38,624 nucleotides of DNA, from the NCBI GenBank assembly GCA_002781265.1, contig PETS01000021.1, forward strand, positions 1 through 38,624. Reading direction: 5' to 3'. Of this stretch, positions 4,779-38,561 are shown piece after piece (within the stretch, counting starts at the first letter, position 1; each line of letters starts with the position of its first letter). The stretch is from Candidatus Falkowbacteria bacterium CG02_land_8_20_14_3_00_36_14 (GTDB taxonomy: Bacteria; Patescibacteriota; Patescibacteriia; Patescibacteriales; UM-FILTER-36-11). Both the position numbers and the translations under genes were made by a program. The notes under the pieces were generated by a model that saw only the letters and a list, made by a program, of their open reading frames with translations, did no database searches and was not told the DNA's origin.

Positions 4779-7475
4779 TTATCTTGTAGCCCCAGAATAA
4801 GCTATTGCCCTAACAATGTCCCAGGCAGAAGCTGTTGATGGGTTATAGCCGTATATAGCTTTAAATGTTTTAATAGCCGTTTTTTCGGAATTTAAGTTTC
4901 TATCAGACGGACGCAAGCCATAGGCCATAACTATGACAGCGGCATCATCATGCGGATTAGACCTATTCGGTTCTCTTAAGTATGTTTTTTTAAATGAAGC
5001 GGTGGCATTAGCTTCAGACAAGTCGTTTTTCTCCGAAGGCCATCGGCCATTGGCAATTTTAATGGCATCATTCCATTCTTCTTCTGATTTTGGCAGTTTG
5101 CCAAAAGCGGATTTATAAGAATTAACTACCCCGGCTCGTTCGCCTTCGCCTAAAAAGATAGTTGTTTTAGTGCCATAAGCGATAAAATTATTAATAGCAT
5201 TAACATTATCTTTAGACAGGCCGGACGCGTCTTTAATTAAATCAGAAACATATTTTTTAACGCTCACTTGCTCTTTGGCTAAATCCCTCTTAAAGCCAAG
5301 CTTTCCTAATAGGGCATTAACATTGGCCTTGATTATATCAGCGGCTTCAGTGGCAATAGTAATTATTTTTTGGGCAAACTCTTCTGTTATTTGGGCGGTC
5401 TTGTCCGCGACTTCTTCAATTTTTGCTTTAGTTTCATTGATTATTTCCGGTAAAGTGGTTTTGATTTCACTGCCGCAAGCTCTTTTTCTGGAATCTTCTT
5501 GAGCAGAAGTAAGAACGCAACCAGTAGGGGACTGGGATAAAATATTTCTATATTCCCAGCCATCAGTACAAATACCCTGCCATACATTATAAGTGGCCGT
5601 GGTGCAGTTTGAAGCAGACAGGCCGCTTGAATTGCCGCCACTGCTTGAAGACGCACAGCTATTGCCGCTTTGAGTATAGCCGGAATTGCATGTAATAGCG
5701 CAATTGGCGCCTACTGTTCCATTAGAGACTGTTTTATTGGAGCAAACTTGCAGTGCGGTTGAACTGGCCAAGGCGGTTTCATTGCCGCCGTCGTCAGCCG
5801 CGGTTACTTTATAATAATAACTAGTCCAGGAACTTGCGGCGGAATCAGAGTACGTTGTTCCGGAAATATCGCTGGTGTTAATCTGGGCATAGGTTGAGCC
5901 GTCAGTTGAACGGTAGACTTCATAACCAAGAAGATCGGTGATGGGGGTGGTGTTCAAGTTAGTGGTAACCGCTGTCCAAGAAAGAGCCACGGAAGTTCCG
6001 GAGCCGCTTGATTGGGCAAGGCCGGTGGGAGAAGCTGGAAAGAGAGAGTCCTGGGGTTGGGTAGCCGAGAAGACGGTCAAGTGGTTTGTTTTTCCAGTCA
6101 ATACCAATTTGTAATCATAGTAGCTTGTGCCGGCGGTTAAAGCGTCAATAAATACTTCATAGCCGGTTTGGGTGGCGCTGTCCGCGACTTGCGTCCATTC
6201 AGTATCTGAGACAGCGGATTTATAATAGGCGTTTCTTACGACCGAGCTTAAATTGATCCAGTTGTTCAAAGAATTATCCCAGTAGCTGGCGGTTAAATTT
6301 TTTAACTTGGAATAATCAATAATATTCATAGCCGCGATATCCGCTTTATAATAAACAAGCTCAATGTCTAAATAAACGTCTTCGCCCAGAGTATTAATGG
6401 CGGTGTTATTGCTATCGGTCGCGGAAACGGTTTTACCGAGTCCGCCTAATGGTTCGGCCGAAGTTGTCTCGGTAACAGCGGCTGTTTCTTGAATGGTTAA
6501 GTTGCCGCTATTGGAATCGTCTCCTAAAGCGTATGGTGGAGCGGTAATTTTTACGCCAGTGCCGTCTGAAGCTGTATCATCAACAGTGCCTCCGGAAGCC
6601 GGAGTAATTGATTTGGATTTTATGTTCATCGTCCAGTTGGAATCGCTGGTTAAAGCGATATTTATACCGCTTTGCGAAATACCGCCGGTTACCGTGATAT
6701 TGGTTTTTGTATTCGCGACTCTATAACTCCCGTCTTTATAGCCGTTAGCTCCGGCGCTTACTTTCCATAAACCATTAGATACAGCTAATGAATAAATACC
6801 GGTAGCGTCGGCCGCGCTATAAGCCATAGCGCCGTTAGTTGTTTCTTCGGCCCAGACCCAGGTGTTGGGCAGGGCTTCAGTGGAAGTTGAGTAAGTGCCG
6901 CTTAAGTCAGTATCAACATAAACCCGGCCGGAAATGGTGGTCGCGCCGACTGCGGTAAGAGTAATAGTATTGGCAGTAGAGCTGGCTGTGCCGGAAATGC
7001 TTGTTGGTTGGGGAGAAAGGTAATTCGGCTTATCCGCGCCTAATTTATAATTGCCGCTTGCTAGTTTAGGCACAGTCAAAGAGAATGTTCCGTTAGAGCC
7101 GGATTCGGCGCCGGTAAAGAAGTTGGAGGATGGGTTGCCGATCCAGACCCAGGCATTGGCAACAGCGGCTCCGTCTGTAACCGAACCGGCAACAGTAATA
7201 GTGCCGGTTGTAGCATCCGGAAGAGTAAAGTAGACGGCGCGCGGCATGTTGGTTACTTTAATAGATTCGTAAGTATTGCTTAAGAGCGCGCGGCTGGCGG
7301 CGGTAGGAGAGTAAGAGCCGTAGCCAGGAATATCAAGATGCATCTGATAGAATTTGCCAGACGCGGAACCTTTTACTTTAATAGTGGAAGTCGCGGCTAA
7401 TCCGTTTATGTCGGTAAAAGAGCGATAGCCGGTAGGTTTAGGGTTGCCTCCATCAATAAGCCACTTCTTCAACAA
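4779..7475 (-). CDS. large extracellular-type repeat protein (CarboxypepD_reg-like repeats, FN3, Cys-rich segment, tandem C-terminal module); possibly the C-terminal part of the upstream giant gene
   Basis: 898-aa ORF whose only start is a TTG, with no SD and no signal peptide. An FN3-like segment reads LSWTAV...GYEVYRS...YYYKVTAADDGGNE. Beta-sandwich repeats read ISGRVYVD...NGLWKVSA. Confidence 0.7.
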   Translation of the reverse strand: MLKKWLIDGGNPKPTGYRSFTDINGLAATSTIKVKGSASGKFYQMHLDIPGYGSYSPTAASRALLSNTYESIKVTNMPRAVYFTLPDATTGTITVAGSVTDGAAVANAWVWIGNPSSNFFTGAESGSNGTFSLTVPKLASGNYKLGADKPNYLSPQPTSISGTASSTANTITLTAVGATTISGRVYVDTDLSGTYSTSTEALPNTWVWAEETTNGAMAYSAADATGIYSLAVSNGLWKVSAGANGYKDGSYRVANTKTNITVTGGISQSGINIALTSDSNWTMNIKSKSITPASGGTVDDTASDGTGVKITAPPYALGDDSNSGNLTIQETAAVTETTSAEPLGGLGKTVSATDSNNTAINTLGEDVYLDIELVYYKADIAAMNIIDYSKLKNLTASYWDNSLNNWINLSSVVRNAYYKSAVSDTEWTQVADSATQTGYEVFIDALTAGTSYYDYKLVLTGKTNHLTVFSATQPQDSLFPASPTGLAQSSGSGTSVALSWTAVTTNLNTTPITDLLGYEVYRSTDGSTYAQINTSDISGTTYSDSAASSWTSYYYKVTAADDGGNETALASSTALQVCSNKTVSNGTVGANCAITCNSGYTQSGNSCASSSSGGNSSGLSASNCTTATYNVWQGICTDGWEYRNILSQSPTGCVLTSAQEDSRKRACGSEIKTTLPEIINETKAKIEEVADKTAQITEEFAQKIITIATEAADIIKANVNALLGKLGFKRDLAKEQVSVKKYVSDLIKDASGLSKDNVNAINNFIAYGTKTTIFLGEGERAGVVNSYKSAFGKLPKSEEEWNDAIKIANGRWPSEKNDLSEANATASFKKTYLREPNRSNPHDDAAVIVMAYGLRPSDRNLNSEKTAIKTFKAIYGYNPSTASAWDIVRAIAYSGATR

Positions 7476-15246: not shown

Positions 15247-15651
15247 TCATTCTTCCCACTTTTCCACGTATTGGCCGATGCCGAAATCATTAAATTTGTT
15301 TTTCAGTTTGGTTTTTTTATATAAGTATTTTATAATTGAGGTAATTTCAATCAAATAGCGGTTGCCTTTGACTTTGTACTTTACGGCCCTTGACTGGATT
15401 GCCCGGCGGATAGTTTTATTTTGCACGCCCCCTATTTTAGCCGCCTCGGAAACAGACAACCAAACGGGATTATTGATAGATTTATTTAATATATCTTCTC
15501 CTTTAATTTTATGCTTTTTTATCCGTTTGGGCTTATCAGTAAAAATATAGTTTTTTTTCCGCTTGCCACTCTGGCTTGAATTTTTTATATTAGAGCCCTC
15601 TTTATTATTTAGAGTTTCATTTAATTGTTTTAGTTCTGATTTTAAATCCAT
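15247..15651 (-). CDS. excisionase/MerR-type helix-turn-helix DNA-binding protein
   Basis: 134 aa. WLSVSEAAKIGGVQNKTIRRAIQSRAVKYKVKGNRYLIE matches the HTH_17-like pattern, and the N-terminal half is basic. Confidence 0.75.
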   Translation of the reverse strand: MDLKSELKQLNETLNNKEGSNIKNSSQSGKRKKNYIFTDKPKRIKKHKIKGEDILNKSINNPVWLSVSEAAKIGGVQNKTIRRAIQSRAVKYKVKGNRYLIEITSIIKYLYKKTKLKNKFNDFGIGQYVEKWEE

Positions 15652-16164: not shown

Positions 16165-16737
16165 ATGAAAGCAAGCAAAATACAAGAAAAAATACTATTT
16201 TCCAGGCTAAAAGGAAAAGATAAAGACGCTTTCGTTAAAGTATATGACCTTTATTTAGATAATATCTATCGTTTTATATATTTTAAAATCGGGAACGAAA
16301 CTGAAGCGCAAGACTTAACTTCAACGGTTTTTTTGAAAGCCTGGAATTATATTCAGAGCAAAGGCATTGCCGAGTATAAAACATTAAAGTCATTAATATA
16401 TAAAATAGCGCGCAACACGGTAATTGACCATTATAGAAAAAACCAAAACGTTAATAGCATTTCTATAGATGGTGAGAGGGGGAATACTGATATAGAAGAT
16501 AAGAAGCAGGATATAGCGAGAAACGTCGAGATAAAGTCAGATTATAATTTAATCCAAAAAAAATTATTGGATTTAAAAGACGAATACCGCGAAGTGATCA
16601 TTTTGTATTATATAGAAGAGATGTCAGTGGGAGAAATTTCTAAAATTTTAGATAAGTCCAGGGGAAATATCAGAGTATTGGTTTTTCGGGCATTAAAAGC
16701 ATTAAAGGAGCTCATAGAAGAAGAAAATAAAAAATAG
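16165..16737 (+). CDS. ECF-type RNA polymerase sigma-70 family factor
   Basis: 190 aa. Region 2 reads YRFIYFKIGNETEAQDLTSTVFLKAW and region 4 HTH reads EYREVIILYYIEEMSVGEISKILDKSRGNIRVLVFRAL. Confidence 0.9.
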   Translation: MKASKIQEKILFSRLKGKDKDAFVKVYDLYLDNIYRFIYFKIGNETEAQDLTSTVFLKAWNYIQSKGIAEYKTLKSLIYKIARNTVIDHYRKNQNVNSISIDGERGNTDIEDKKQDIARNVEIKSDYNLIQKKLLDLKDEYREVIILYYIEEMSVGEISKILDKSRGNIRVLVFRALKALKELIEEENKK

Positions 16738-18960: not shown

Positions 18961-19090
18961 AGCGGAATTCCGATTGATTTACAATCAAACCTCTATTATT
19001 TAAAAAATAATTAATTTATAAAGAGTAAAAAGAAACCTTGATAAATTTTTTAGCTTTAAGCGAAAATATTTATCAAGCTATTAATTAATT

Positions 19091-22916: not shown

Positions 22917-22924
22917 TAAAGCAT

Positions 22925-25070: not shown

Positions 25071-27308
25071 ATGCCGAAAAAAATTTATTTAACAATCTTA
25101 AAATCAGGAATTTATCTTTCTTTTTTATCGGTTTTTTTAGTGTCCGGCAAGCTATTTTTCCCCTACATAACGACCAAGCAGATTTTTTTTAATATTTTAA
25201 CTGAAATATTATTTTTCTTTTGGCTGGTTTTCATAATCCAATATCCATCTTACCGACCGTTCATCTTTGTTAAAGGAGGTCTAAAAAAATCCCTGATTCC
25301 CTTAGGGCTGGTAAGTTTTTTTATTATAATTACCTTAAGCAGTATTTTGGGGGTGGATTTTAATTTAAGTTTTTGGGGCGATGCGGAGAGAATGCTCGGT
25401 GTTTTTCATGTCCTTCATTTTTTAGCTTTTTATTTTATAATAATTACCGTTATGCTAAGCTGGAAGGACTGGTACGCGTTAATGCTCGTTTCCGTAGCCG
25501 CGGCCGCGTTTGTCAGCATCCATGCATTAACGGTAATAGCGTATAGCACGGTGGGTAACGCCGCTTATGTCGGCGGTTATCTGATTTTTAATATATATTT
25601 TAGCTTGATTTTGTTTTTTCGGACCGATAAGAAAATTTTTTGGCGCTGGCTCTATCCGGCGGCGATTATCCTTATGCTGTTTGCTTTGAAGAATACCGGC
25701 GTGGCCGGAGCTTACGTCGGACTGGGTTCCAGCGCAATATTGGCTTTATTTTTATTCGGATTATTGAGTCGGGATAAAAAGGTAAAAATTTATATTTTAT
25801 CCGCCGCTGTTTTATCCATAGTTTTAATAACCGGAATTTTTTTATATAGGAATAATTCTACGGTGAGAAGCGTTAAATTTTTAGATGACGTATTATCGGA
25901 GATTTCCGTGGGAAAAAATACTTTCCAAACCCGGTTAATTTCATGGAAAACCGCCTGGAAGGATTTTCCGGCGCACCCTTTGCTCGGAACCGGCTATGGA
26001 AATTTCGCCATTACCTTTGACAAATATTTTGACCCGAGCTTTTATAACTATACTCGTTCAGAAACTTATTTTGACCGGGCGCATAACAATCTGATTGACA
26101 TTGCTTCCACGTCCGGGGCATTGGGGCTATTGGCTTATTTATCTATTTTTGCCGCCGCCGGTTATTATTTAGTAATCGGATATAGAAAAGATAAAATAAA
26201 ATTACATGATTTTGTTTTATTAATTTCATTAATTATCGCTTATTTTGTGCAAAATTTAGCCGTTTTTGATTCCTTGGTTACTTATATTCCTCTAATGGCG
26301 ATGCTCGGCTATATTTATTGGCTTGCCAGAAATGATCAAGAGATAGATTATATAAAAGATGACTCTTTTAATAATAAGGAAATTTTTGCCGGTTTTTTAA
26401 TTGGATTGTCAGTACTGATAATATTGTTTAAATATAATATCGGGCCTCTGCGGACGTTTATTGGCACGATTAAAGGGCAAATCGCTTTCGCGCAGGGCGA
26501 TATCGCTGGGGGAGTGGAAATATATAAAGGCGCTTTAAGCCGCCATACGGTCCTTGACCGCGACAGCCGCGACAGCTTGGTCCGTTCCATGACTTCGGTC
26601 CTGCTTAATGAGAGCGTAAGCCAAAGTCAATTGGAAGACGTCTTGGCCTTTGTTGAAAAAATGGCGGAAGAGAATATTAAATATAATCCGAAAGACAGCT
26701 TAACCCAGACGGAACTGGCCCAGTTTTTTATTTCCGCCGCGCAAGCCAGTAAAGATGATAACGAAAAATTTTTTTCATACCTTAATCAAGCGATGGAGGC
26801 GGCAAATAAAGCGATAGATTCAAGCCCGGGGAGGATACCTCTTTATTATGTCAAGGCGCAGATTTATAAAATGCGCGGCGACAGCGATAATGCGATTGTG
26901 ACATTGGAATATGCCGCTGGCCTTAATGAAAAATATTATGATAGTTTTTGCAATTTAGCCAAATATTACTTTATGGCGCGAAATGAAGAAAAAGGATTTT
27001 CTGCTATGGATAAATGCATTGATTTGGGCGGCGCGGAATTATTAACGCCGGTTGATTACGTTATAAGTTTAATAAATTTTTATATAGACAAGCAGAATGA
27101 TTGGCCGAGAGTAGTGAAATTATATGAAAGGTTGGTGAAGATGCAGCCGGACCAAGCGGTTAATTGGGTAAAATTAGCGGCGTCTTATGAACGAATTGGC
27201 GAATATGGGGAAGCAATTGAAGCGGCCAGAAAATCCGTTGAACTGGACCCGACCTTAAAAGATGAAGTGGAACAGTTTATTAATGCTTTAGGAAAAATAA
27301 GTTTATAA
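25071..27308 (+). CDS. O-antigen-ligase-like (Wzy_C) polytopic membrane protein with C-terminal TPR domain, paralog 1
   Basis: 745 aa with about 10 or more TM helices, GTGYGNFAITFDKYF, and FDRAHNNLIDIASTSGALGL (Wzy_C-like). The C-terminal ~300 aa is soluble with TPR-like repeats. Confidence 0.88.
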   Translation: MPKKIYLTILKSGIYLSFLSVFLVSGKLFFPYITTKQIFFNILTEILFFFWLVFIIQYPSYRPFIFVKGGLKKSLIPLGLVSFFIIITLSSILGVDFNLSFWGDAERMLGVFHVLHFLAFYFIIITVMLSWKDWYALMLVSVAAAAFVSIHALTVIAYSTVGNAAYVGGYLIFNIYFSLILFFRTDKKIFWRWLYPAAIILMLFALKNTGVAGAYVGLGSSAILALFLFGLLSRDKKVKIYILSAAVLSIVLITGIFLYRNNSTVRSVKFLDDVLSEISVGKNTFQTRLISWKTAWKDFPAHPLLGTGYGNFAITFDKYFDPSFYNYTRSETYFDRAHNNLIDIASTSGALGLLAYLSIFAAAGYYLVIGYRKDKIKLHDFVLLISLIIAYFVQNLAVFDSLVTYIPLMAMLGYIYWLARNDQEIDYIKDDSFNNKEIFAGFLIGLSVLIILFKYNIGPLRTFIGTIKGQIAFAQGDIAGGVEIYKGALSRHTVLDRDSRDSLVRSMTSVLLNESVSQSQLEDVLAFVEKMAEENIKYNPKDSLTQTELAQFFISAAQASKDDNEKFFSYLNQAMEAANKAIDSSPGRIPLYYVKAQIYKMRGDSDNAIVTLEYAAGLNEKYYDSFCNLAKYYFMARNEEKGFSAMDKCIDLGGAELLTPVDYVISLINFYIDKQNDWPRVVKLYERLVKMQPDQAVNWVKLAASYERIGEYGEAIEAARKSVELDPTLKDEVEQFINALGKISL

Positions 27309-27310: not shown

Positions 27311-29545
27311 ATGTCGAAAAAAACATACCAATTAATTTTGCAAATTGGAATTTATATTTCTTTTTTATCGGTTTTTTTAGTTTTCAAAAATCTGCTTTTC
27401 CCTTATATTACGTCCAAGCAGATTACTTTTAATATTATCACAGAATTGTTGTTTATTATTTGGGTGGCTTATGTGGTCAAATATCCTTCGGCCCGGCCCC
27501 GGTGGTCGTATATTTCTTTTGGATTAATAGTTTTTTTTCTGGCAGTGCTGGTATCGTGCTTTACGGGTGTTGATTTTAATTTAAGCTTCTGGGGAGACGT
27601 GGAAAGGATGCTTGGATTTTTCCATATTTTTCATTTTTTGCTATTTTATTTTATTATCATTACCGTATTTCGGAAGTGGCCGGACTGGCGAAATTTATTT
27701 ATTGTTTCGGTTTCAGCCGCCGCCTTGATAAGTCTTTACGCGCTGATAAATAATGTGAGCATGAGCACTATCGGCAATACCGCTTATGTGAGCGGTTATC
27801 TGATTTTTAACATCTATTTTTCCTTTATATTGTTTTTTCGGGGAAAAAACTGGCTGATAAAATCTATCTATCCGGTGTTGGCCTTAATAATGCTTCTGGC
27901 TTTTAGAAAAGCCGACACCTCCGGCGCTTATGTCGGTCTGGCTGCCAGCATTCTAGTCTTACTGTCCTTATACTTGATTCTGCATAAAAATAAAAAAATC
28001 AGAATTTACAGCTCGGCTTTTTTATTGATTTTAGTTTTTTCAGTTTCATTTATTTTTTTAAATAAAGAAAGCGCCTTGGTGCAGGGCAATAATTTTTTGA
28101 AAAATACTACCAGGGAAATTTCCTTAAACAAAAATACTTTCCAGACCCGCCTTATTTCCTGGCGCGCCGCATTAAAAGATTTTAAAAATCATCCTATTTT
28201 AGGCACGGGTCATGGAAATTATGCCATTACCTTTGATAAATATTTTGAGCCGAAATTTTATACCTTTACCAGTTCAGAAACCTATTTTGATAGAGCGCAT
28301 AATAATATTATAGATATTGCTTCCACCACCGGCGCTGTCGGCCTTTTAACTTATCTGTCAATTTTTATGGCCGTTGGCTATTATTTAATTTTGGGGTATA
28401 GGCAAGATAAAATAAATATTAATGAATTCGTATTAATTTCTGCTTTAATAACCGCTTATTTTATCCAAAATTTAGCGGTTTTTGATTCCTTGGTTACTTA
28501 TTTGTCTTTGATGGTAGTGTTGGGATTTGTTTATTGGCTAACCAATAAAAATGAAATAGAAGAAATAGAAGAGGAGCATGACCAGCCATTAAACAACCAG
28601 GAGATTTATACTTTTGCTGTTGTCGGATTAATAGTGTTATCCATACTTTACCAATATAATATAAAGCCGTTAAAAATGCTTATCGGCACGATTAAGGCGC
28701 AAATAGTTTTAGCCCAGCCAGGAGGGGATATTATTAGTGTCGTAGATATCCATAAAAAGGCCTTAAGCTATAATACGGTTTTGGACCGCGACAGCCGGAC
28801 TGTTTTAATCCGTTTAATTTCAGGAAATATTAATTCATTAAAAAATATTGGCAGCCAACCAGCCAAAGAAATATTAGATTACGCCATTTCTCTGGCCAGC
28901 GCCAATGTTGATTATAACAAAGAAGACAGCTTAAACCAGCTGATGCTGGCCCAAGCTTATGATACGGCCGCCAGATTCAGCGCGGACGGCAATCAGGATA
29001 CATTTTATCATTATGCCGATCGGGCTTTGGAGGCGGTTAACGAATCAATCGCCGCCAGTCCGGGCAGAGTGACAGTTTATTTTTCCAAAGCGCAGATATT
29101 TATGACCAGGGGAGAAGCGGATAAGGCCATTGATACCTTAAAATACGCGGTAAGCTTGAATGAGGACTATGTTGACAGCCATTGTAATTTAAGCAGATTT
29201 CTTCTTTCCCTGGGACGGGAAGAAGAGGGTTTTCAAGCAATGGATAAATGCATTGATAAAGGCGGAACCGGCAATTTATATCCGGCGCAATATGTAAAAT
29301 TATTAATCAACCATTATGCTGAATTAGAAAGTAAAGCCAATATTGCGAGAGTAATAAAACTTTATGAGCTATTAGCTAATAATTTAGAGCCGAATGATGC
29401 GAAAATATGGGTTAATTTGGCCAGTTTATACGCCCGGGAAGGAAATAAAGATAAAGCCATAGACGCGGCCCGAAAAGCCATTGAATATGATCCGAGCATA
29501 AAAGACGCGGCCGAGGATTTTATAAAAAAATTAGAAGAGTTATAA
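27311..29545 (+). CDS. O-antigen-ligase-like (Wzy_C)-TPR protein, paralog 2
   Basis: 744 aa, collinear with paralog 1 (roughly 55-60% identical by eye over the N-terminus). It starts 2 nt after paralog 1 ends. Confidence 0.88.
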   Translation: MSKKTYQLILQIGIYISFLSVFLVFKNLLFPYITSKQITFNIITELLFIIWVAYVVKYPSARPRWSYISFGLIVFFLAVLVSCFTGVDFNLSFWGDVERMLGFFHIFHFLLFYFIIITVFRKWPDWRNLFIVSVSAAALISLYALINNVSMSTIGNTAYVSGYLIFNIYFSFILFFRGKNWLIKSIYPVLALIMLLAFRKADTSGAYVGLAASILVLLSLYLILHKNKKIRIYSSAFLLILVFSVSFIFLNKESALVQGNNFLKNTTREISLNKNTFQTRLISWRAALKDFKNHPILGTGHGNYAITFDKYFEPKFYTFTSSETYFDRAHNNIIDIASTTGAVGLLTYLSIFMAVGYYLILGYRQDKININEFVLISALITAYFIQNLAVFDSLVTYLSLMVVLGFVYWLTNKNEIEEIEEEHDQPLNNQEIYTFAVVGLIVLSILYQYNIKPLKMLIGTIKAQIVLAQPGGDIISVVDIHKKALSYNTVLDRDSRTVLIRLISGNINSLKNIGSQPAKEILDYAISLASANVDYNKEDSLNQLMLAQAYDTAARFSADGNQDTFYHYADRALEAVNESIAASPGRVTVYFSKAQIFMTRGEADKAIDTLKYAVSLNEDYVDSHCNLSRFLLSLGREEEGFQAMDKCIDKGGTGNLYPAQYVKLLINHYAELESKANIARVIKLYELLANNLEPNDAKIWVNLASLYAREGNKDKAIDAARKAIEYDPSIKDAAEDFIKKLEEL

Positions 29546-29749: not shown

Positions 29750-30883
29750 TTATTTGTTATAAATTTTCAGATATTTTTTAAAAGTTTCTTCCAGGAGAAA
29801 CTTTTTTGATTGATTAAGATTCTTTTCGCCCAAAGAAAGAGATAAATTTTTATCCGTGGCTAATTTTTTAAATTTGGTTAAAAATTCTTTTTTATTATTA
29901 AATTCATAAAGCTGATTCGGTGAATTGTCTAAAATTTCCGCGTTGCCGCCGACAGAGGAAGCCAGTATGGGCGTGCCGGCGAATAAGGATTCAATCAAAG
30001 TTATAGACAGGCCTTCATATCTTGAAGGCAGAACGAATAAATCAAAGCCCTTTAGATATTGGCAGGCGTTGTTGATTTCTCCCAATAAAAATATTTTATC
30101 GGCCAATTTAAGATTGTTTATCATATTTTCAAATTTTTTTCTTTTTTCCCCCGCGCCGATAATCAGCAAAGCCGCCTCGGGTTTTATCTTTAATATTTCC
30201 GGAAAAATATCAATTATAAATTCATAATTTTTGGCCATTACCAGCCGGCCGATAGAGCCGATAAGATATTTATTTTGTATATTTATTTTAAATTTTTTTT
30301 CAAAATAATTTTTAGCATGGCCGGCGGAAAGAAAATTAAGATTTCGGGGTTCAAGGCCGTTAAAAATTATTTTTCCCCCTTTAACAAGTTTAATTTTTTG
30401 TGCTTGGGCTAAATTTTTTCGGCTGATGAAAATCGGTTTGTCAACATAAAGAAGAAGAATTTTAAAAAATAATAGATAAATTATTTTTATTATTTTAGGC
30501 GCCTGGTAATTTTCATCCAAAACGGATAAGCCGTGGAAAGTAAAAATCGTGGTTATATTTTTATTTGCCAGTTTGGCGCCGATTGCCCCCAAGAGGGCAT
30601 TGGCGCTGTTAAAATGGACCGCGCTAAAATTATTATTTTTAAGATAATTTTTTAATTCAAAAATAAAAAATAGATTAGCTAAAGGATTATGGGTTCTTTT
30701 CAGCCATTTGAAATTAAAATATGGAATTGCCGCCGATTTTAATTCATTTTTAAGATAATCTCCGCAGCCATATCCGACAAGGGCTTCTATTTTACATTCT
30801 TTTAATTTTTTTGCTAAATTAAGCACAAAATTTTGCGCTCCGCCGATTTCTCCCTTGGTTATTACTATAAGAATTTTTGGCAT
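29750..30883 (-). CDS. GT4-family glycosyltransferase
   Basis: 377 aa with the EX7E region YEGLSITLIESLFAGTPILASSVGGNAEIL. Confidence 0.9.
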   Translation of the reverse strand: MPKILIVITKGEIGGAQNFVLNLAKKLKECKIEALVGYGCGDYLKNELKSAAIPYFNFKWLKRTHNPLANLFFIFELKNYLKNNNFSAVHFNSANALLGAIGAKLANKNITTIFTFHGLSVLDENYQAPKIIKIIYLLFFKILLLYVDKPIFISRKNLAQAQKIKLVKGGKIIFNGLEPRNLNFLSAGHAKNYFEKKFKINIQNKYLIGSIGRLVMAKNYEFIIDIFPEILKIKPEAALLIIGAGEKRKKFENMINNLKLADKIFLLGEINNACQYLKGFDLFVLPSRYEGLSITLIESLFAGTPILASSVGGNAEILDNSPNQLYEFNNKKEFLTKFKKLATDKNLSLSLGEKNLNQSKKFLLEETFKKYLKIYNK

Positions 30884-32054: not shown

Positions 32055-32058
32055 CTCA
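32040..32058. repeat. 19-bp inverted repeat, left arm (TCTACCGAGCTTTAGCTCA)
   Basis: Exact reverse complement of 32937-32955. It covers the last 4 sense codons and the TAG stop of the UGDH-like gene. Confidence 0.85.
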
Positions 32059-32064
32059 TGGTTT

Positions 32065-32195
32065 CAGACTGTCCGAAAACTATTTTTTTTGTCATTCCCG
32101 ACTCGATCGGGAATCCAGAAAGGTTTAATATCAGACAAATTATGGATTTCCGCTTTCACAGGAATGACAGTAAAGTGTAGTTTTCGGACAGTCTG
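32065..32195. repeat. 131-nt long hairpin / MITE-like palindromic element
   Basis: The outer 17-bp perfect arms are CAGACTGTCCGAAAACT and AGTTTTCGGACAGTCTG. The inner arms are TGTCATTCC and GGAATGACA, with an internal ATTCCCGA-CTCGA-TCGGGAAT hairpin. Confidence 0.8.
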
Positions 32196-32205
32196 GAATA
32201 TATAT

Positions 32206-32691
32206 ATGCAAAAGCATTATAAGCATCTAAAAGAAGATAGTCCTTATTGGCCGGATAATTCAATCTATTTTTTAATAGATTCTACCTTTATTCATTTCCC
32301 TTATTTCCGGATAGATGAGCAAAAAACAATAGTATTAAATCAAATAAAAAAAATAAAAACGCAGTTAGGAATTCCCATATCCGATTATTGCATATTAACA
32401 AACCATTATCATATAAAATTTTATTTAAAAAATGGTTTGGATTTAAAAAGAGTGAAATAATTATTGCGCGGAGGTATTTCTTTTGAATACAGGAAAAGAT
32501 TTAAATTGCCATATAAAGAAATATGGCAGACTAGAAAAATAATAAGGATTACTTCTGAAAGAATGAATTTTAAAGTTTCAGGATACATTATTGGAAATTT
32601 ATTAAAACATAAGGAAGTAAGTACTTTAAAAGAGTTGAAAGAAAGTGAATTTTCCGATTATTGGTATATGGCTGATAAATATGGGAGATGA
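32206..32691 (+). pseudogene. REP-associated tyrosine transposase (RAYT / IS200-like Y1 transposase) with in-frame TAA
   Basis: HUH motif LTNHYHIKF and the catalytic-Tyr region SGYIIGNLLKH. ORFs 32206-32457 and 32461-32691 share one frame and are separated only by TAA at 32458-32460. Confidence 0.75.
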
Positions 32692-32780
32692 TATTGCCCA
32701 AGAGCTAGTGTATAATGTGATAGATGTTGGTGAAGATATTTGGGGAGCGGTTGATTTAAGACAATTAAATCAAAGTATTT

Positions 32781-32896
32781 CTCGTAGCTCTGCTCCGGGG
32801 TATTCCTTGCAAGGAAGAGTTTGAGAAACCATTGGTTTTTCAAAATAATTAACTACCTTGAGGATACCTCGTAGCTCTGTTGCGGGGTAATCCATT
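32781..32896 (+). repeat. 99-bp repeat copy B (32798-32896), preceded by a 22-nt partial copy of its own 3' end
   Basis: CTCGTAGCTCTG[C/T]T[C/G]CGGGGTA occurs at 32781-32802 and 32868-32889, an 87-nt period. Confidence 0.85.
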
Positions 32897-32936
32897 GAGA
32901 TAAATTATATGCCGGCAGGTTAAAACCTGCTAACCC

Positions 32937-32955: not shown

Positions 32956-32962
32956 TAAATAT

Positions 32963-33865
32963 ATGGCAAAATGTTTAGTGACCGGTGGAGCCGGGTTTAT
33001 CGGCTCCAATTTAACCGACGTTTTAATAGAGCGCGGAGATAAAGTTATTATTATTGATAATTTGTCCACCGGTAAAAAAGAAAATTTAAATTCTCAAGCA
33101 AGATTTTATGAAAAAGATTTAAGAAATTTAGAAGATATCAAACCGTTATTCAAAGGAGTTGATTATGTTTTTCACGAAGCGGCCTTGGCGCGCGTCCAGC
33201 CGTCAATTATAGATCCGGTTAATTATAATGACCACAATGTCAACGGCACTTTAAACGTATTAGTCGCCGCTAAAGACGCGGGCGTAAAAAAGGTGGTTTA
33301 TGCCGCTTCCTCTTCCGCTTACGGCGATCAGAAAAAAATGCCTTTAACCGAGGATATGCCGGCCAATCCCATCAGCCCTTATGGACTGCAAAAATATATA
33401 GGCGAGGAGTATTGCCGTTTGTTCAGTTATGTTTATAAGCTGCCGACTGTTTGTTTGCGGTATTTTAATGTATTCGGGCCCCATATGGTCAAAGAGGGAG
33501 CTTATGCTTCGGTAGTGGCTATATTTTCCAGCCAGCGTAAAAATAACCAGTCATTAACAATAGTCGGTGACGGGGAGCAATTGCGCACTTATACTTTTGT
33601 TAAAGATATTGCGCGGGCAAATATACTGGCCGCGGAAAGTGGAATAGCGGATGGCCGGCCGATTAATACCGGCCAAAGCAATGAATACAGCGTTAACGAC
33701 ATAGCCAAAATGATCGGCGGTCCGGCCGTTAATATAGAACTGCGCATTGAGCCGCGCCGGAATTTATGCTCTAACGCTTTAGCTAAAAAATTATTAGGAT
33801 GGGAACCGAAAGTCAAACTGCATGAGTGGATAGGAGAATATAAAAAAGAAATAGGAATAAATTAG
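32963..33865 (+). CDS. NAD-dependent nucleotide-sugar epimerase/dehydratase (GalE/UXS-like SDR)
   Basis: GGAGFIGSNL Rossmann motif, SSSAYG, and catalytic YxxxK (YGLQK); 300 aa. Confidence 0.9.
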   Translation: MAKCLVTGGAGFIGSNLTDVLIERGDKVIIIDNLSTGKKENLNSQARFYEKDLRNLEDIKPLFKGVDYVFHEAALARVQPSIIDPVNYNDHNVNGTLNVLVAAKDAGVKKVVYAASSSAYGDQKKMPLTEDMPANPISPYGLQKYIGEEYCRLFSYVYKLPTVCLRYFNVFGPHMVKEGAYASVVAIFSSQRKNNQSLTIVGDGEQLRTYTFVKDIARANILAAESGIADGRPINTGQSNEYSVNDIAKMIGGPAVNIELRIEPRRNLCSNALAKKLLGWEPKVKLHEWIGEYKKEIGIN

Positions 33866-33928: not shown

Positions 33929-35125
33929 ATGATTAAAAAAATACTTATTTTTTCAACCGCCTATCTGCCTTTAATCGGCGGAGCGGAAGTGGCTATAAAA
34001 GAGATTACTGACCGGATGGGAAATGAAGATTTTTCCGCCAGAGGCGGACCAGCGTTCATCTGGGATATGATAACGGCCAGAATTAAAAGAGATCTTCCGA
34101 AATTTGAACGTTTGGGCAATATTAATGTCTATAGAATCGGGCTTGGCTTAGGGGCGCTTGATAAAATAATTTTAGCAATGTTCGGAGCGTTTAAAGCCAG
34201 GCGGTTGGATAAAAAAAACAATTATGATGCTATCTGGTCCATAATGGCCAGCCAGGCGAGCATAGGGGCCGCGTTTTTTAAGATATTCAATAAAAATAAA
34301 AAGCTTATTCTTACGCTCCAGGAAGGAGACGAGGAGGAACATTTGGCGAGATATGTATTTAATATTAAATTTTTATACAAATTATTAGTCAGGCCTTGGC
34401 ATAGATTGGTTTTTAAAAAGGCGGATAAGGTAACAGCGATTAGTAACTATTTAAAAGAGCGGGCGATAAAAAATGGCGTGAAAGCGCCGGTTGAGATTAT
34501 TCCCAACGGAGTTGATATTAGGAATTATGAATTAAGAATTATGAATCATGAATTAAATAGATTAAAAAATAAATTAGGGATTAAAAAAAATGATAAAATA
34601 TTAATAACTACCGGCCGGTTGGTTAAAAAAAATGCGGTTGATGATATTATCAGATCTCTTACATGTTTGGATAGAAATATTAAATTTATAAGCTTGGGAG
34701 CAGGTCCGGATTTTGATAAATTAAAAAATTTAGCCAAAGAAACAGGAGTGGATAAAAGAGTATTGTTTTTACCTCTGGTTGAGAATAAAGATGTAATAAA
34801 ATATTTAAAAATAGCTGATATATTCATTCGGCCGTCTCTTTCCGAGGGGCTGGGGAATTCATTTTTAGAAGCGATGGCGGCCGGAATTCCGGTAATCGGT
34901 ACGCCTGTCGGCGGCATACCTGATTTTTTAATTAATAATGAAACAGGTTTTTTTTGCGAAGTGCAGAATCCAAAAAGCATTGCTGAAAAAGTGAATTATA
35001 TTTTAGACGAAAAGAATAAAGAAGCGGTATTAAAAGTAAAAGAAAATGCCTGCCGGCTGGTTGCGGAAAAATACAATTGGGATAAGATTGCGGAAAAAAT
35101 GAAAAATATTTTTAATATTTTATAA
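33929..35125 (+). CDS. GT4-family glycosyltransferase
   Basis: 398 aa with SEGLGNSFLEAMAAGIPVIGTPVGGIPDFL. It contains in-frame repeat-derived segments (see findings). Confidence 0.9.
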   Translation: MIKKILIFSTAYLPLIGGAEVAIKEITDRMGNEDFSARGGPAFIWDMITARIKRDLPKFERLGNINVYRIGLGLGALDKIILAMFGAFKARRLDKKNNYDAIWSIMASQASIGAAFFKIFNKNKKLILTLQEGDEEEHLARYVFNIKFLYKLLVRPWHRLVFKKADKVTAISNYLKERAIKNGVKAPVEIIPNGVDIRNYELRIMNHELNRLKNKLGIKKNDKILITTGRLVKKNAVDDIIRSLTCLDRNIKFISLGAGPDFDKLKNLAKETGVDKRVLFLPLVENKDVIKYLKIADIFIRPSLSEGLGNSFLEAMAAGIPVIGTPVGGIPDFLINNETGFFCEVQNPKSIAEKVNYILDEKNKEAVLKVKENACRLVAEKYNWDKIAEKMKNIFNIL

Positions 35126-35140
35126 AACTTGTCATTTGCA

Positions 35141-35689
35141 ATGGCAAGTTATAAATTTATGGATAAAAAAACTAAAATTATTATCGCGGTTCTAATTATT
35201 ATTTTAGCCGCGGCTTCCAGATTGGTTAAACACCCTTTTAATTTTACGCCAGTCGTGGCTATGTCTATTTTTGCCGGCTGTTATTTGGAAAAGAAATGGG
35301 CTGTGATATTACCTATCGTCTCAATGCTGGTCAGTGATTATTTCATCGGCTTTTACGATTGGCAGGTAATGGCTTCCGTTTATATTAGCATATCTTTGGC
35401 TTTTCTTATCGGCTGGTTTTTGCAAAAAAGAAAAAATTGGAAAAGTATCGTTTTGGCATCTTTAGCCGCCTCTTTGATTTTTTTTATTGTAACCAATTTC
35501 GCGGTCTGGGTTTTTTTTAAATGGTATCCGCATACTTGGGCGGGCCTGATTGATTGTTTTATTTTAGCCCTGCCTTTTTACAGAAATACTTTAGCCGGAG
35601 ATTTATTTTATACCGGAGTATTTTTCGGCATATATGAGATTATTTTATTATGGAGAGAGAAACGAATAACGGAATTAGTCAGAAATTAA
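35141..35689 (+). CDS. integral membrane protein, DUF6580-like putative transporter component (start uncertain: 35129 TTG / 35141 ATG / 35159 ATG)
   Basis: About 5 TM helices. The SRLVKHPFNFTPVVAMSIFAG pattern is recalled from the DUF6580 family. Confidence 0.65.
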   Translation: MASYKFMDKKTKIIIAVLIIILAAASRLVKHPFNFTPVVAMSIFAGCYLEKKWAVILPIVSMLVSDYFIGFYDWQVMASVYISISLAFLIGWFLQKRKNWKSIVLASLAASLIFFIVTNFAVWVFFKWYPHTWAGLIDCFILALPFYRNTLAGDLFYTGVFFGIYEIILLWREKRITELVRN

Positions 35690-35723: not shown

Positions 35724-37367
35724 ATGTTAAAATTTTTATTTAGGCAAATTTATAATAATAAACGGATAATAAAATATTTAATATCCGGCGGCACAGCGGC
35801 ATTTGTTGATATTGTATTATTATATATTTTTACTGATTTTTTTGGTTTATGGTATTTATTATCAGCTATAATATCTTTTTTAATTGCTTATTTTGTCAGT
35901 TTTTATCTGCAGAAATTTTGGACTTTTAGGGATAATACTCTTCATAATATCCGCCGGCAGATGATTATTTACTTTATTGTCGGAGTAACCAATTTAGGAA
36001 TAAATACCGCCGGCATGTATTTATTGGTTGACAAGTTTAAACGGCATTATTTAATCGCGCAGATAATAATGGGCGCTTTAATCAGTTTTAGCAGTTATTT
36101 AATTTACAGATTTTTTATATTTTCTAAAAAAGATAATTCAATAAATAAAAAATATAATAAAAATTCAATGGAAGATGATAAAGAAAATAAAAGATTAAAA
36201 GTGTTAATCGCCACCGGCATCTATCCGCCTGATATCGGCGGACCGGCGACTATAATTAAATCTTTAGTAAAATCTTTGAAAGAAAATAATATAAAAATAA
36301 AAATTATCAGTTATGGTGATAATATTAATTTAGAGAATAAAAAAATAAAATTTTATGATAAAGAATTATATTTAGTGGATAGAAAGAAAATAACCAGGCA
36401 TATTAAATATTTTTTAGCAATGTATAAGCTGGCACAATGGTCTCAAGTTATTTATGTTACAGATATTTACAGCGTTGGTTATTTTGCTTATCTTTTGCAT
36501 AAAATTATGGGTAAAAAATATATTGTTCGCTTCGCCGGCGATAGCGCTTGGGAAACTTCGGCCGCTAACGGCTGGATTAATGATTATATTATTGATTTTC
36601 AAAATAAAAAATATAATAATAAAATTGAAAAATTAAAAACTAAAAGGAAGAAGATATTAATAAATGCTGATAAAATAATCGCAGTTAGCAAATTTATGTC
36701 AAAAATAGCTTTAATAATTGGAGTAAAAAAAGAAAATATTGAAGTTATTTATAATTCAGTAGATTTTAATGATTTAGTGGACATAAAAGAAAAGGAAGTG
36801 GAAGAGATTAGAAAAAAATATGGTTTAGGCGCAAAAATTATAATTACTTCTTGCCGCTTAACTCCTTGGAAAGGCGTGGATGAAATTATTAAAATATTGC
36901 CTGATTTAATTACAAAAATTGGACGGTTAAGTTTTATAATTATCGGCAATGGCCGGGAATTGGACAAGCTAAAAAAATTATCCGAAAAATTGAATATTAG
37001 GGACAATGTATTTTTCTTAGGCAGATTAAAGCACGAAGAAACTTTAAAGTATATAAAAGCCGCTGATTTGTATATTTTAAATTCAAATTATGAAGGATTA
37101 TCGCACGCCCTTCTTGACGCCATGTATATGAAAACTCCAATTTTATCGACAAAAGTCGGCGGCAATACGGAATTAATCCAAAGCGGAAAAGAAGGAATTT
37201 TAGTGGAATATAATAATAAAGAAGAGCTCTTAAACTCTTGCTTTAGTATTTTAAATAACTATAATCTAGCTCAAGAATTCACAAATAATGCGAAAAGAAA
37301 ATTAATAAATTTTAACTGGAATAATACTGTAGATAGAACAGTAAAATTATTATTTGAATATGCCTAA
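35724..37367 (+). CDS. GtrA-like membrane domain fused to GT4 glycosyltransferase
   Basis: The N-terminal ~130 aa has 4 TM helices (LISGGTAAFVDIVLLYIFTDFFG...YLQKFWTFRD). The C-terminal GT4 domain carries YEGLSHALLDAMYMKTPILSTKVGGNTELI. Confidence 0.85.
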   Translation: MLKFLFRQIYNNKRIIKYLISGGTAAFVDIVLLYIFTDFFGLWYLLSAIISFLIAYFVSFYLQKFWTFRDNTLHNIRRQMIIYFIVGVTNLGINTAGMYLLVDKFKRHYLIAQIIMGALISFSSYLIYRFFIFSKKDNSINKKYNKNSMEDDKENKRLKVLIATGIYPPDIGGPATIIKSLVKSLKENNIKIKIISYGDNINLENKKIKFYDKELYLVDRKKITRHIKYFLAMYKLAQWSQVIYVTDIYSVGYFAYLLHKIMGKKYIVRFAGDSAWETSAANGWINDYIIDFQNKKYNNKIEKLKTKRKKILINADKIIAVSKFMSKIALIIGVKKENIEVIYNSVDFNDLVDIKEKEVEEIRKKYGLGAKIIITSCRLTPWKGVDEIIKILPDLITKIGRLSFIIIGNGRELDKLKKLSEKLNIRDNVFFLGRLKHEETLKYIKAADLYILNSNYEGLSHALLDAMYMKTPILSTKVGGNTELIQSGKEGILVEYNNKEELLNSCFSILNNYNLAQEFTNNAKRKLINFNWNNTVDRTVKLLFEYA

Positions 37368-38561
37368 AGTTTTATTAATAAATCCTCCTTTTAACATAAC
37401 CAAAGAAAATTATGAAAGTTAAATTTCTGTCGGTCTTTTAAGTATCGCCACCTATTTAGATAGCATTGGCATTGACGTGGAGATAGTTGACGGCGTGCGG
37501 CAGAAAAATTATTTTGTCTTAGTAAAAGAAAAAATTGTAAGTTGCAAATTCGTCTGTCTTTCAGTTATGACCATGCAGATTTCCCGCGCTTTTGAGATTT
37601 GCCGCTTAATCAGAGAATTAAATCCCGAATGTAAAATTATTTGGGGAGGATCTCACCCCACTTTCTTCATCAAAGAAACCGCGATTATCCTTTAGTTGAT
37701 ATCGTCTGCTACGGCGAAGGCGAAATAACTACGCGGGAAATTGTTGAAGGAAAAAATTTATCGGAGATAAACGGAATCGCGTACAAAAAGGACGGAGAAG
37801 TAATAGTAAATCCTCCAAGAGAGCTTCACGATCCGGCGAAAATGCCCCTCTTTAAATGGGAGCTGGTGCTAAAAGAAATTTTGCATAATTTATATTTAAT
37901 CCCCTCGTTGACTTCCCGCGGCTGTCCGCACCGATGCACCTTTTGCATTAACGCTATTTTAAAAAATAAATGGCGGGCTCGGACGGCCGAGCAGGTTTTA
38001 AATGATTTGGAAATTATAAAAAGCAAAGAATATTTTCAAAATAAAAAATTGCGTTTTTGGGATGAAAATTTTTTCGTTGATATTAACAGGGCGAAAGAAA
38101 TAATTAACGGCATGATAGAGAGAAATTTAATAATGCCGTGGGAAACAACGATTAGAGCAGATTACGTAAAAGAGGGAAGGGTTGATGACGAATTGATGGC
38201 GAAATTAAAAAAATCCGGCTGCAACCTTCTTTCATTCGGCGCGGAGTTCGGTAGCCCTGTGATTTTAAAAAAAATCAATAAGGATATTGCTCCGGAAGAT
38301 ATTTTAAATTCCGCTAAAATGTGCTTAAGGCATGATATTATTCCCCAATATTCATTTATGATAGGCCTTCCCGGAGAGACAAAAAAAGATATGATGATTC
38401 GCTTAATTGATAAATTAATAAAATTAAGCCCCAAGGTGCAAATTTTGGGTCCGCAGGCGTTCCGGCCTTATCCGGGTTCAACCCTTTATGAAGAATGCAA
38501 GTCAGCCGGCTGGAAAGAGCCGGAATCGCTTGAAGAATGGAAAGAATATTCGGAAAATTAA
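37360..38561 (+). pseudogene. B12-binding-domain radical SAM enzyme, disrupted (in-frame TAA + 1-nt frameshift)
   Basis: MPKVLLINPPF... stops at TAA 37420-37422 and continues in the same frame (ISVGLLSIATYL...IWGGSHPTFFIKETA). It then shifts frame near 37681-37684 into DYPLVDIVCYGEGE...SRGCPHRCTFC (CxxxCxxC). Confidence 0.8.

Follow-up and report, generated by a model that had tools for sequence, protein, structure and literature searches.

The closest described systems to the locus reported here are the slg clusters of Geobacillus stearothermophilus NRS 2004/3a and Paenibacillus alvei CCM 2051T, in which a gene of the surface layer (S-layer) type lies beside a gene for a Wzy_C transferase, WsaB and WsfB, respectively (PMC2943079). 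These clusters also encode glycosyltransferases, nucleotide-sugar enzymes, and a tetratricopeptide repeat (TPR) motif, which is fused to the C-terminus of WsfB, as it is in PglL, and which belongs to a separate protein, WsaA, in the case of WsaB (PMC2943079). We found the same elements in a 38,624-nt stretch of DNA from Candidatus Falkowbacteria bacterium CG02_land_8_20_14_3_00_36_14 (contig PETS01000021.1; this whole stretch is called the window below), where two tandem genes for Wzy_C proteins with a TPR domain (Wzy_C-TPR) lie downstream of a gene for a secreted protein of 1,229 amino acids (aa). By analogy, the locus resembles the S-layer glycosylation clusters of Gram-positive bacteria, here in a new phylum, and what would set it apart is its regulation, with an extracytoplasmic function (ECF) sigma factor module and a leader RNA. 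Relative to the slg clusters, the window has a larger TPR domain (~270 aa), a tandem transferase, an ECF/anti-sigma module, an RNA leader, and a host among the Patescibacteria. The slg clusters have a galactose 1-phosphate transferase (WsaP/WsfP) and either Wzm/Wzt or Wzx, whereas the window has neither. The wsfA gene of P. alvei, an asparagine-synthase homologue (PMC2943079), is paralleled among relatives of the window, where an AsnB homologue adjoins Wzy_C-TPR in six loci (L044, L046, L051, L052, L059, and L060). In contrast to the slg clusters, the S-layer role and the glycosylation proposed for the window are read from genes, models, and transcripts.

At the level of the enzymes, PglL of Neisseria, PilO, and PglS of Acinetobacter share with Wzy_C-TPR a Wzy_C/RfaL-type glycosyltransferase C (GT-C) core, its His and Arg residues, 13 transmembrane (TM) helices, and an extracytoplasmic C-terminal domain, which in PglS follows the 13 TM helices as a periplasmic domain (PMC12800693). 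The Wzy_C-TPR proteins, which are predicted enzymes, differ from these in having no detectable specific sequence relationship beyond Wzy_C, a multi-repeat TPR superhelix, an unconserved third Arg, and a monoderm-like host. They have the fold and the Arg265 and His313 positions in common with WaaL of Cupriavidus metallidurans (7TPG/7TPJ); WaaL, in contrast, lacks the 13th helix and the TPR domain, uses as its acceptor lipid A-core, which is not to be expected in CPR cells that have no outer membrane (bioRxiv 10.1101/2020.05.14.094862), and has an arginine, Arg191, at a position that is Ala or Ser in the window. OGT and SPY resemble Wzy_C-TPR in that a TPR superhelix, which selects protein acceptors, is fused to a glycosyltransferase, but their catalytic domains are unrelated and the analogy is one of design only. 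Among eukaryotic GT-C enzymes, the TMTC enzymes are TPR-bearing protein glycosyltransferases. The tua operon of Bacillus subtilis contains a Ugd (TuaD), glycosyltransferases of family 4 (GT4; TuaC and TuaH), and the Wzy_C-family protein TuaE, which has no TPR; weak NCBIfam matches point to this operon, but the window has no equivalents of TuaA, TuaB, and TuaF.

The Patescibacteria, or Candidate Phyla Radiation (CPR), account for a large share of bacterial diversity, have mostly escaped cultivation, and attach to hosts through their cell surface. The locus adds a candidate for an S-layer family, backed by transcript data, a candidate O-oligosaccharyltransferase (O-OTase) family with at least 953 relatives, and a conserved regulatory module consisting of a helix-turn-helix (HTH) protein, an ECF sigma factor, a DUF5667 partner, and a leader RNA. 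Were the enzymes true O-OTases with new acceptor rules, they might be of interest for glycoengineering. The analysis also prunes an original prediction made for this DNA, removing giant LTD/Big_5 proteins as the glycosylation target, variation driven by repeats, and a sugar-modifying radical S-adenosylmethionine (SAM) enzyme.

Candidate O-oligosaccharyltransferases and a proposed pathway

We scanned the window open reading frames (ORFs) of at least 100 aa against Pfam and NCBIfam, applying gathering and equivalog cut-offs. The region is best explained as a cell-envelope locus made up of two linked modules plus accessory insertions (Table 1). Our favoured reading, held tentatively, is that of S-layer-type protein O-glycosylation by Wzy_C-TPR O-OTases using a lipid-linked glycan from the enzymes of the locus. 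We base it on gene content, folds, catalytic residues, partial synteny, and the high transcription of the 1,229-aa gene. In the first module, an HTH_17 protein, an ECF sigma factor, a DUF5667 partner, and a leader RNA precede the gene for a probable coat protein of ~125 kDa, which the sigma factor may control. The Ugd-like dehydrogenase and the short-chain dehydrogenase/reductase (SDR) epimerase would supply nucleotide sugars, probably including uronic acids, and cytoplasmic GT4 enzymes, one of them fused to GtrA, would assemble the glycan on a carrier that we infer to be polyprenyl phosphate. The glycan would then be flipped and moved en bloc by the two Wzy_C-TPR enzymes at the outer face of the membrane, with the extracytoplasmic TPR domain holding the acceptor. 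The likeliest acceptor would be the neighbouring 1,229-aa surface protein, possibly along with other secreted proteins, as with WsfB/WsaB. Since an initiating transferase and a flippase are absent from the window, both must be encoded elsewhere in the genome. A wider form of this proposal, in which Wzy_C-TPR O-OTases operate throughout the Patescibacteria and, in Falkowbacteria, act on a hitherto unrecognised S-layer protein family governed by the ECF pair and the GGGAUUCCG-loop leader, giving a coat for episymbiotic contact, is in our view doubtful.

The Wzy_C-TPR paralogues are 53% identical and separated by 2 nt, and the single-copy Wzy_C-TPR proteins of relatives are usually closer to paralogue 2. 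The family comprises at least 953 proteins (E ≤ 1e-10) among the candidates scored; all named matches were annotated as Patescibacteria, Parcubacteria, Falkowbacteria, or “unclassified bacterium,” with one “Actinobacteria” label. Copies identical to the first protein were present in three metagenome-assembled genomes (MAGs) at NCBI, whose accessions are those of Crystal Geyser genomes, and in several JGI/ENA groundwater assemblies. The AlphaFold2 (AF2) model of paralogue 1 (pLDDT 85, pTM 0.82) has a 12-helix WaaL-like core, in which helices 9 and 10 are joined by a large loop, a long 13th helix, and, after TM13, a TPR superhelix at residues 478-744 (~270 aa). WaaL (7tpg_B) was the only membrane-protein structure in the 50 best Foldseek matches, with a TMt of 0.65 over 450 columns, and it was also the sole PDB sequence match of the membrane domain (E = 1.4e-7). 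As for the TPR superhelix, it resembled the TPRs of OGT and SPY, in agreement with sequence searches.

Two residues, R288 and H338, were invariant in 42/42 family members and aligned with Arg265 and His313 of the 7tpg_B chain, which we take to be its functional arginine and histidine. In WaaL and PglS, conserved Arg residues coordinate pyrophosphate and a His catalyses (PMC12800693). The loops after helices 2, 6, 8, and 10 are rich in Lys and Arg; cytoplasmic loops of this kind, together with 13 helices, would place the TPR domain outside the cell, on the same side as the catalytic loop. Judging from sequence and models, the Wzy_C-TPR proteins look like outside-acting transferases of a glycan linked to undecaprenyl pyrophosphate, and their modelled architecture is of the O-OTase type (WsfB, PglL, and PglS). 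A role as WaaL sensu stricto, a lipopolysaccharide ligase, is unlikely because CPR cells from groundwater lack an outer membrane. In the literature, we found nothing on Wzy_C or O-antigen ligase in CPR. The original prediction had the Wzy_C-TPR enzymes transfer a lipid-linked glycan within a dedicated glycosylation island; such a transfer is supported by the WaaL fold, R288/H338, and sugar-gene neighbours, but the island is not self-contained, as the window has no phosphoglycosyltransferase or flippase.

A candidate S-layer protein, its sigma-factor module, and its leader RNA

The 1,229-aa protein belongs to a family of 413 proteins of ~1,150-1,260 aa that are conserved over their full length. 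It has no Pfam domain and no PDB sequence relatives. Its AF2 model (pLDDT 85.6) starts with three small alpha/beta modules at the N-terminus, after which come about eight immunoglobulin (Ig)-like beta-sandwiches. Searching this model with Foldseek returned only generic strings of Ig domains, with one archaeal S-layer protein at rank 27; neither Foldseek nor the PDB sequence search revealed homology to known S-layer proteins, and the N-terminal modules had no detectable similarity to SLH or to any solved domain. The mature protein has a pI of 4.24, no Cys, and 21.5% Thr+Ser, and it carries neither an LPXTG motif nor a C-terminal anchor.

We mapped transcript contigs from four aquifer metatranscriptomes (X25-X28) to bases 1-35000 of the window. 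The 1,229-aa gene was the only well-covered gene, with 22 contigs from all four metatranscriptomes spanning 19546 to 22769, a semi-quantitative result given that it comes from assembled contigs of low depth. Over the same bases there were no transcript contigs on the ECF, anti-sigma, PA14, Wzy_C-TPR, GT4, Ugd-like, or epimerase genes, nor on the HU gene (4421-4702). DNA contamination is an unlikely source of the contigs because uniform contamination would not give this pattern. Periodic S-layers, seen by cryo-EM, have been reported on groundwater CPR cells, which are without an outer membrane (bioRxiv 10.1101/2020.05.14.094862). Because of its composition, its predicted Ig string, its dominant transcription, and these reported S-layers, the 1,229-aa protein is a strong candidate for an S-layer or major surface protein. 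We found no S-layer protein or glycosylation machinery assigned in CPR/Patescibacteria in the literature, and no Falkowbacteria proteomics.

The conserved core of this module comprises the HTH_17 protein, the ECF sigma factor, the DUF5667 partner, the structured leader RNA, and the 1,229-aa secreted protein, and the ECF sigma gene lies consistently upstream of the 1,229-aa family gene in relatives. Homologues at 39-42% identity, the three most divergent ones, retain an ECF sigma gene and a partner gene immediately upstream of the 1,229-aa family gene in every case, with DUF5667 in 2/3 and HTH_17 in 2/3. The DUF5667 protein is presumed to be the anti-sigma partner of the ECF sigma factor; no recognised anti-sigma domain was detected in it, and no target promoter was found for the sigma factor.

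The 5' leader of the 1,229-aa gene contains a conserved structured RNA element, a previously unrecorded feature that is separate from the question of the glycan. It consists of an 11-bp closing helix, a long variable hairpin (69-220 nt), and a 9-nt internal loop with the near-invariant sequence GGGAUUCCG, which reads GGAAUUCCG in the window copy. The 3' strand of the closing helix is the near-invariant 20-mer GCGGGATTCCGGYTGATTTG (18962-18981), which has one match in the window, where none is expected by chance. This 20-mer occurred once per locus, 41-239 nt upstream of the start codon of a gene of the 1,229-aa family. We found it so placed in 23 genome loci, L090 with its homologue of 40% identity among them, and in 45 of the 60 assessable metagenome matches. 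The remaining 15 metagenome matches were mostly due to chance and lay in coding sequence of unrelated bacteria (GyrB, for example); L128 and L171 have AT-rich matches that are possibly real instances in a different context. An ECF promoter shared with the ecf gene was rejected as an explanation of the 20-mer. We read it as an RNA element because each locus has a single copy, which always precedes the 1,229-aa gene and is part of a covarying helix; a role at the DNA level is possible.

Fold z-scores of the leader ranged from -3.0 to -9.1 across 53 distinct elements, with z = -8.39 for the window copy. In an alignment of 33 sequences, 92% of cells were paired and 16/23 pairs had double changes, which 0/500 shuffles equalled, and slid controls paired at 36-49%; as the apex of the alignment was pruned via minimum free energy pairs, the paired percentage is partly circular, whereas the diversity of pair types is not. 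This pruning was applied because the variable apex of full-length natural elements breaks the MAFFT alignment. A search of the whole window against Rfam 15 gave no match at gathering scores, and the matches in 18600-19100 were at chance level (E = 2-10). S-layer mRNAs typically have long structured leaders. This one may act in mRNA stability, as a protein-binding site, or as a ligand sensor. Upstream of the leader, at 18690-18800, are a conserved hairpin starting AAGGTCGA... and a AATTAATTAATCAAC box, with counterparts in L025, L047, L069, L036, L086, and L129; these pieces may be a promoter or further domains of a larger leader.

Gene neighbourhoods in relatives and rival explanations

To compare gene order, we collected 80 loci of Wzy_C-TPR homologues with 10-kb flanks and ran tblastn with every window protein. 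Counts upstream of Wzy_C-TPR refer to the 29 loci with at least 8 kb of upstream sequence and counts downstream to 45 loci. The nearest relatives, in a species-level genome collection, were MAGs of Candidatus Falkowbacteria, Parcubacteria, and Patescibacteria, with protein identities of 42-60%. A homologue of the 1,229-aa protein was present upstream in 18/29 loci, DUF5667 in 15/29, and the ECF sigma factor in 13/29, the last two often falling beyond the flank. Downstream, we found the GT4 genes in 29-35, the Ugd-like gene in 20, and the epimerase gene in 22 of the 45 loci. Two copies of Wzy_C-TPR were present in 16/80 loci, usually of different paralogue types, and a third type exists. Of the 28 loci that span at least 18 kb, 20 contain a Thr/Ser-rich secreted ORF of 900 aa or more no further than 10 kb from Wzy_C-TPR. 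In other subclades, the large secreted proteins that adjoin Wzy_C-TPR are non-homologous (LTD plus Laminin_G_3, CARDB, or PA14), and five more distant loci have a WbaP-type phosphoglycosyltransferase (Bac_transf) beside it. Co-occurrence of Wzy_C-TPR with the giant LTD/Big_5 proteins, part of the original prediction, was not borne out (0/29 loci for the 2,411-aa part and 2/29 for the 898-aa part); co-occurrence with a large secreted Thr/Ser-rich protein was, in the form of the 1,229-aa protein.

Several observations weigh against glycosylation of the surface protein by the Wzy_C-TPR enzymes. Among the scanned ORFs, no Bac_transf or MraY-like domain of an initiating phosphoglycosyltransferase was found, and no Polysacc_synt or Wzt domain of a Wzx flippase or a Wzm/Wzt exporter; the exporter-related content is just the GtrA-like domain fused to GT4. 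At the position aligned with Arg191, the third WaaL arginine, the window paralogues have Ala or Ser, and 21/42 family members have Arg. O-OTases, ligases, and polymerases of the Wzy_C family are inseparable by sequence, TPR domains serve polysaccharide machineries too, and the transcript contigs are of low depth. A gene order shared at 42-60% identity might simply be inherited. Moreover, the three most divergent 1,229-aa homologues have no Wzy_C-TPR downstream, so that the ECF module and the 1,229-aa gene form the tightest unit and the join to the glycan genes holds at the level of a subclade only. Many of the 80 Wzy_C-TPR loci are without a 1,229-aa homologue nearby, and Wzy_C-TPR therefore cannot depend on that protein. 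A rival explanation is that there is no functional link at all, and that an ECF surface-protein operon and a general glycoconjugate locus are adjacent by inherited order in one subclade, the island being an artefact of reading proximity into the annotation. This reading accommodates the divergent homologues that keep their ECF module, the housekeeping neighbours such as ValS at many Wzy_C-TPR loci, the variable content in between (toxin-antitoxin, PA14, and methyltransferase genes), and the leader RNA, which is confined to the 1,229-aa gene and never precedes glycan genes. We nevertheless consider it unlikely: the adjacency persists at 43-60% protein identity despite variable insertions, non-homologous large secreted proteins recur beside Wzy_C-TPR in other subclades, and S-layer genes beside glycosylation clusters are documented (PMC2943079).

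Alternatively, the glycan genes may make a secondary cell-wall polymer (e.g., one like teichuronic acid), with Wzy_C-TPR as its polymerase and/or ligase; the surface protein would be unglycosylated and would either bind the polymer through its three N-terminal modules in the manner of SLH domains or be unrelated. Uronic acids are suggested by the Ugd-like and epimerase enzymes, one GT4 matches TuaC (E = 1.6e-36), and the tua operon of B. subtilis pairs GT4 and Ugd enzymes with TuaE, a putative polymerase of the Wzy_C type. The two or three types of Wzy_C-TPR per locus (16/80 relatives) could be a polymerase and a ligase, the three N-terminal modules of the 1,229-aa protein are small repeats, and the many loci without this protein nearby fit as well. 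However, all Tua-type matches fall far short of the equivalog level (TuaC, 126 bits against a cut-off of 550; TuaD, 67 against 700), no Wzx, chain-length regulator (Wzz), or LCP ligase was found in the window, and the N-terminal modules resemble neither SLH nor solved domains. A 13th TM helix followed by a large outside TPR domain is, in addition, the layout of O-OTases (PMC2943079, PMC12800693) and is unreported for Wzy or TuaE. On balance, we judge a cell-wall polymer to be a serious rival, though less probable than protein glycosylation. The original prediction had instead cast giant LTD/Big_5 fibres as glycosylated attachment organelles diversified by repeats. The giant gene does encode a secreted-type, Thr/Ser-rich product with adhesin-like domains, and some distant relatives encode LTD-containing secreted proteins downstream of Wzy_C-TPR. 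But the gene is broken by a fixed 1-nt insertion and almost untranscribed, its 2,411-aa part is missing in 29/29 and its 898-aa part in 27/29 syntenic loci, the heptanucleotide array is imperfect, in frame, and invariant, and the repeats resembling repetitive extragenic palindromic (REP) elements are intergenic. For this window, that version is largely refuted and very improbable.

The giant gene, repeats, and remaining genes

A library-wide phmmer search aligned the 898-aa ORF with the last 900 residues of proteins that are 2,700-3,500 aa long. The best homologue, P0241 (3,234 aa), is colinear with the window, its residues 1-2349 lying in the 2,411-aa frame and its residues 2349-3234 in the 898-aa frame; the window thus has two large genes, not three. 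P0241 reads ...DEVTFDGANPKPTGY; at this place in the window, one frame gives ...EEVAY-stop and the following frame ...LIDGGNPKPTGY. The frame break is one extra T, TAT(T)GAT, at ~7456/7457 (ORF junction 7453-7475). The sequence recurs, free of indels, in contigs from four DNA runs (2014-2017), which shows that the break is real and has become fixed in the population. Sequencing error was rejected as its cause, with the sequence identical in four runs and outside a homopolymer, and UGA read-through was rejected because there is a further stop four codons on. Such a break would mean that the giant gene is split, is a pseudogene, or contains a recoding site. In the four metatranscriptomes, its transcripts amounted to a single 162-nt contig. 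Three giant exported Thr/Ser-rich proteins had originally been predicted: the composition was upheld (Thr+Ser share of 21-24% in the large proteins), the number was not, there being two genes, and the 898-aa part has no signal peptide. With the 898-aa query, we obtained 5,775 matches at E ≤ 0.001, many of them confined to a C-terminal helical module of ~200 aa (4779-5380; ...AYGLRPSDRNL...VRAIAYSGATR), which thousands of proteins of 260-3,600 aa carry at their C-terminal end. No Pfam family covers this module, which may serve as a surface-anchoring domain in CPR.

We saw no sign that the surface proteins undergo programmed variation. The heptanucleotide array detected by TRF (34517-34555; 5.6 copies, 84% matches) lies in frame inside a GT4 gene as IRNYELRIMNHELN, and it showed no change of length in contigs of the four DNA runs. 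Over 34475-34621, word depth in the DNA runs was 109-380 against ~20, with many loose ends; the short motif therefore recurs elsewhere in the community, but at this locus no length variant was seen. Two 107-nt REP-like repeats (31005-31111 and 32798-32904) are 94% identical and intergenic, and together with a remnant resembling IS200/RAYT they sit between the Ugd-like and epimerase genes. This stretch has a metagenome depth of 140-1,146 against ~20, is hence multi-copy, and breaks assemblies. The idea that the heptanucleotide and mobile repeats generate variation finds no support in these results, the array being imperfect and unchanged and the mobile repeats intergenic debris.

Pfam and NCBIfam confirmed nearly all of the gene content as first described, namely the PA14 protein, the ECF sigma factor with its membrane partner, two Wzy_C-TPR enzymes, three GT4 enzymes (one fused to GtrA), and the DUF6580 protein, as well as two nucleotide-sugar enzymes, which by Pfam are a Ugd-like protein of short form (313 aa) and an SDR epimerase. 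The statement that capsule-export (Wza/Wzc) and Tag/Tar hallmark genes are missing from the window also holds by these scans. Genes that had gone unlisted are those for the HTH_17 protein, the SAM methyltransferase, the MNT/HepT pair, a 96-aa coiled-coil protein, and the IS200-like remnant.

Table 1 Features of the window, in order of position
Feature	Coordinates	Strand	Evidence and remarks
Giant secreted adhesin-like gene, ~3,300 aa	4779..14688	-	LTD, Big_5, CarboxypepD_reg (Pfam)
898-aa ORF, without signal peptide	4779-7475	-	C-terminal part of giant gene
2,411-aa ORF, N-terminal signal/anchor	7453-14688	-	Big_5, LTD, CarboxypepD_reg
HTH_17 DNA-binding protein, divergent from ECF sigma gene	15247..15651	-	Pfam; kept upstream of ECF in relatives
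ECF-type sigma factor, sigma-70 regions 2 and 4	16165..16737	+	TIGR02937, 89.8 bits against cut-off 42.9
DUF5667 single-pass membrane protein	16755..17729	+	PF18915, E = 1.4e-11; one TM segment
Class I SAM-dependent methyltransferase	17805..18611	+	Pfam; variable member, 5/80 relatives
Conserved structured RNA element in 5' leader of 1,229-aa gene	18812..18982	+	Fold z, covariation, recurrence
1,229-aa secreted protein, signal peptide	19091..22780	+	No Pfam domain
MNT (nucleotidyltransferase) and HepT (HEPN RNase) toxin-antitoxin pair	22907..23553	+	Pfam; 2-3/80 relatives
Secreted PA14 protein, carbohydrate-binding type	23578..24618	+	Pfam PA14, E = 2.5e-13
Wzy_C-TPR paralogue 1	25071..27308	+	Pfam Wzy_C (PF04932), 65.2 bits against cut-off 31.7
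Wzy_C-TPR paralogue 2	27311..29545	+	Pfam Wzy_C (PF04932), 70.6 bits against cut-off 31.7
GT4 glycosyltransferase, cytoplasmic	29750..30883	-	Pfam; downstream of Wzy_C-TPR in 29/45 relatives
Short Ugd-like protein (UDP-glucose/GDP-mannose dehydrogenase-like), 313 aa	31113..32054	+	Pfam, NCBIfam; 20/45 relatives
Degraded IS200/RAYT-like remnant, REP-like repeats either side	32058..32904	+	Y1_Tnp E = 7e-4, read-through translation
SDR nucleotide-sugar 4-epimerase/dehydratase, GalE- or TviC-like	32963..33865	+	Pfam Epimerase, E = 2.5e-60; 22/45 relatives
GT4 glycosyltransferase	33929..35125	+	Pfam; holds heptanucleotide array
DUF6580 membrane protein, lineage-specific	35129..35689	+	Pfam, E = 8.6e-54; 0/45 relatives
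GtrA-like TM domain fused to GT4	35724..37367	+	Pfam GtrA_DPMS_TM and Glycos_transf_1; 35/45 relatives
Radical SAM protein, B12-rSAM-like class	37641..38561	+	Pfam; after GtrA-GT4 also in L047

The short Ugd-like protein retains the catalytic Cys motif GGHCFIKD as well as the NAD-binding and central domains, but Pfam and NCBIfam gave no match for a UDP-binding domain at its C-terminus. It is a distinct enzyme and not a truncation, because relatives (L008, L022, L029, and others) also have a full-length Ugd of 464 aa. The NCBIfam matches of the SDR epimerase were below equivalog cut-offs. The radical SAM gene is present as first described, but its labelling as sugar-modifying was not supported: its best NCBIfam match was HpnJ (131 bits against a cut-off of 578), and Pfam and NCBIfam gave no B12-binding domain, no sugar-related signature, and no specific family to which it could be assigned. 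The sole ABC transporter of the window (1289-2829), which lies outside the range of the original prediction, is of the DrrAB type (drrA, 312.9 bits against a cut-off of 312.45), and we rejected it as a Wzm/Wzt or TagGH glycan exporter.

The MNT/HepT pair is an accessory insertion between the 1,229-aa and PA14 genes. In some relatives, the position of the PA14 gene is taken by PA14 or CARDB proteins. The PA14 protein of the window has two N-terminal repeats of ~60 aa and an acidic linker; an anchoring module shared between these repeats and the N-terminal repeats of the 1,229-aa protein was considered and rejected (BLASTP E = 9.8). Directly upstream of Wzy_C-TPR paralogue 1 lies the 96-aa coiled-coil ORF (24725-25015), which contains a 21-nt tandem repeat (VDKRFDG x3) and is kept in L028 and L031 at 61-72% identity. 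Both large surface-protein genes (4779-14688 and 19091-22780) have a G+C content of 0.45-0.48 against a background of ~0.35, and their G+C content at third codon positions is 0.43-0.50 against 0.25-0.42 in neighbouring genes. Finally, many CPR-like MAG contigs in the genome collection (L011, L013, L017, L018, and others) are titled “uncultured Gammaproteobacteria bacterium” and are apparently mislabelled.

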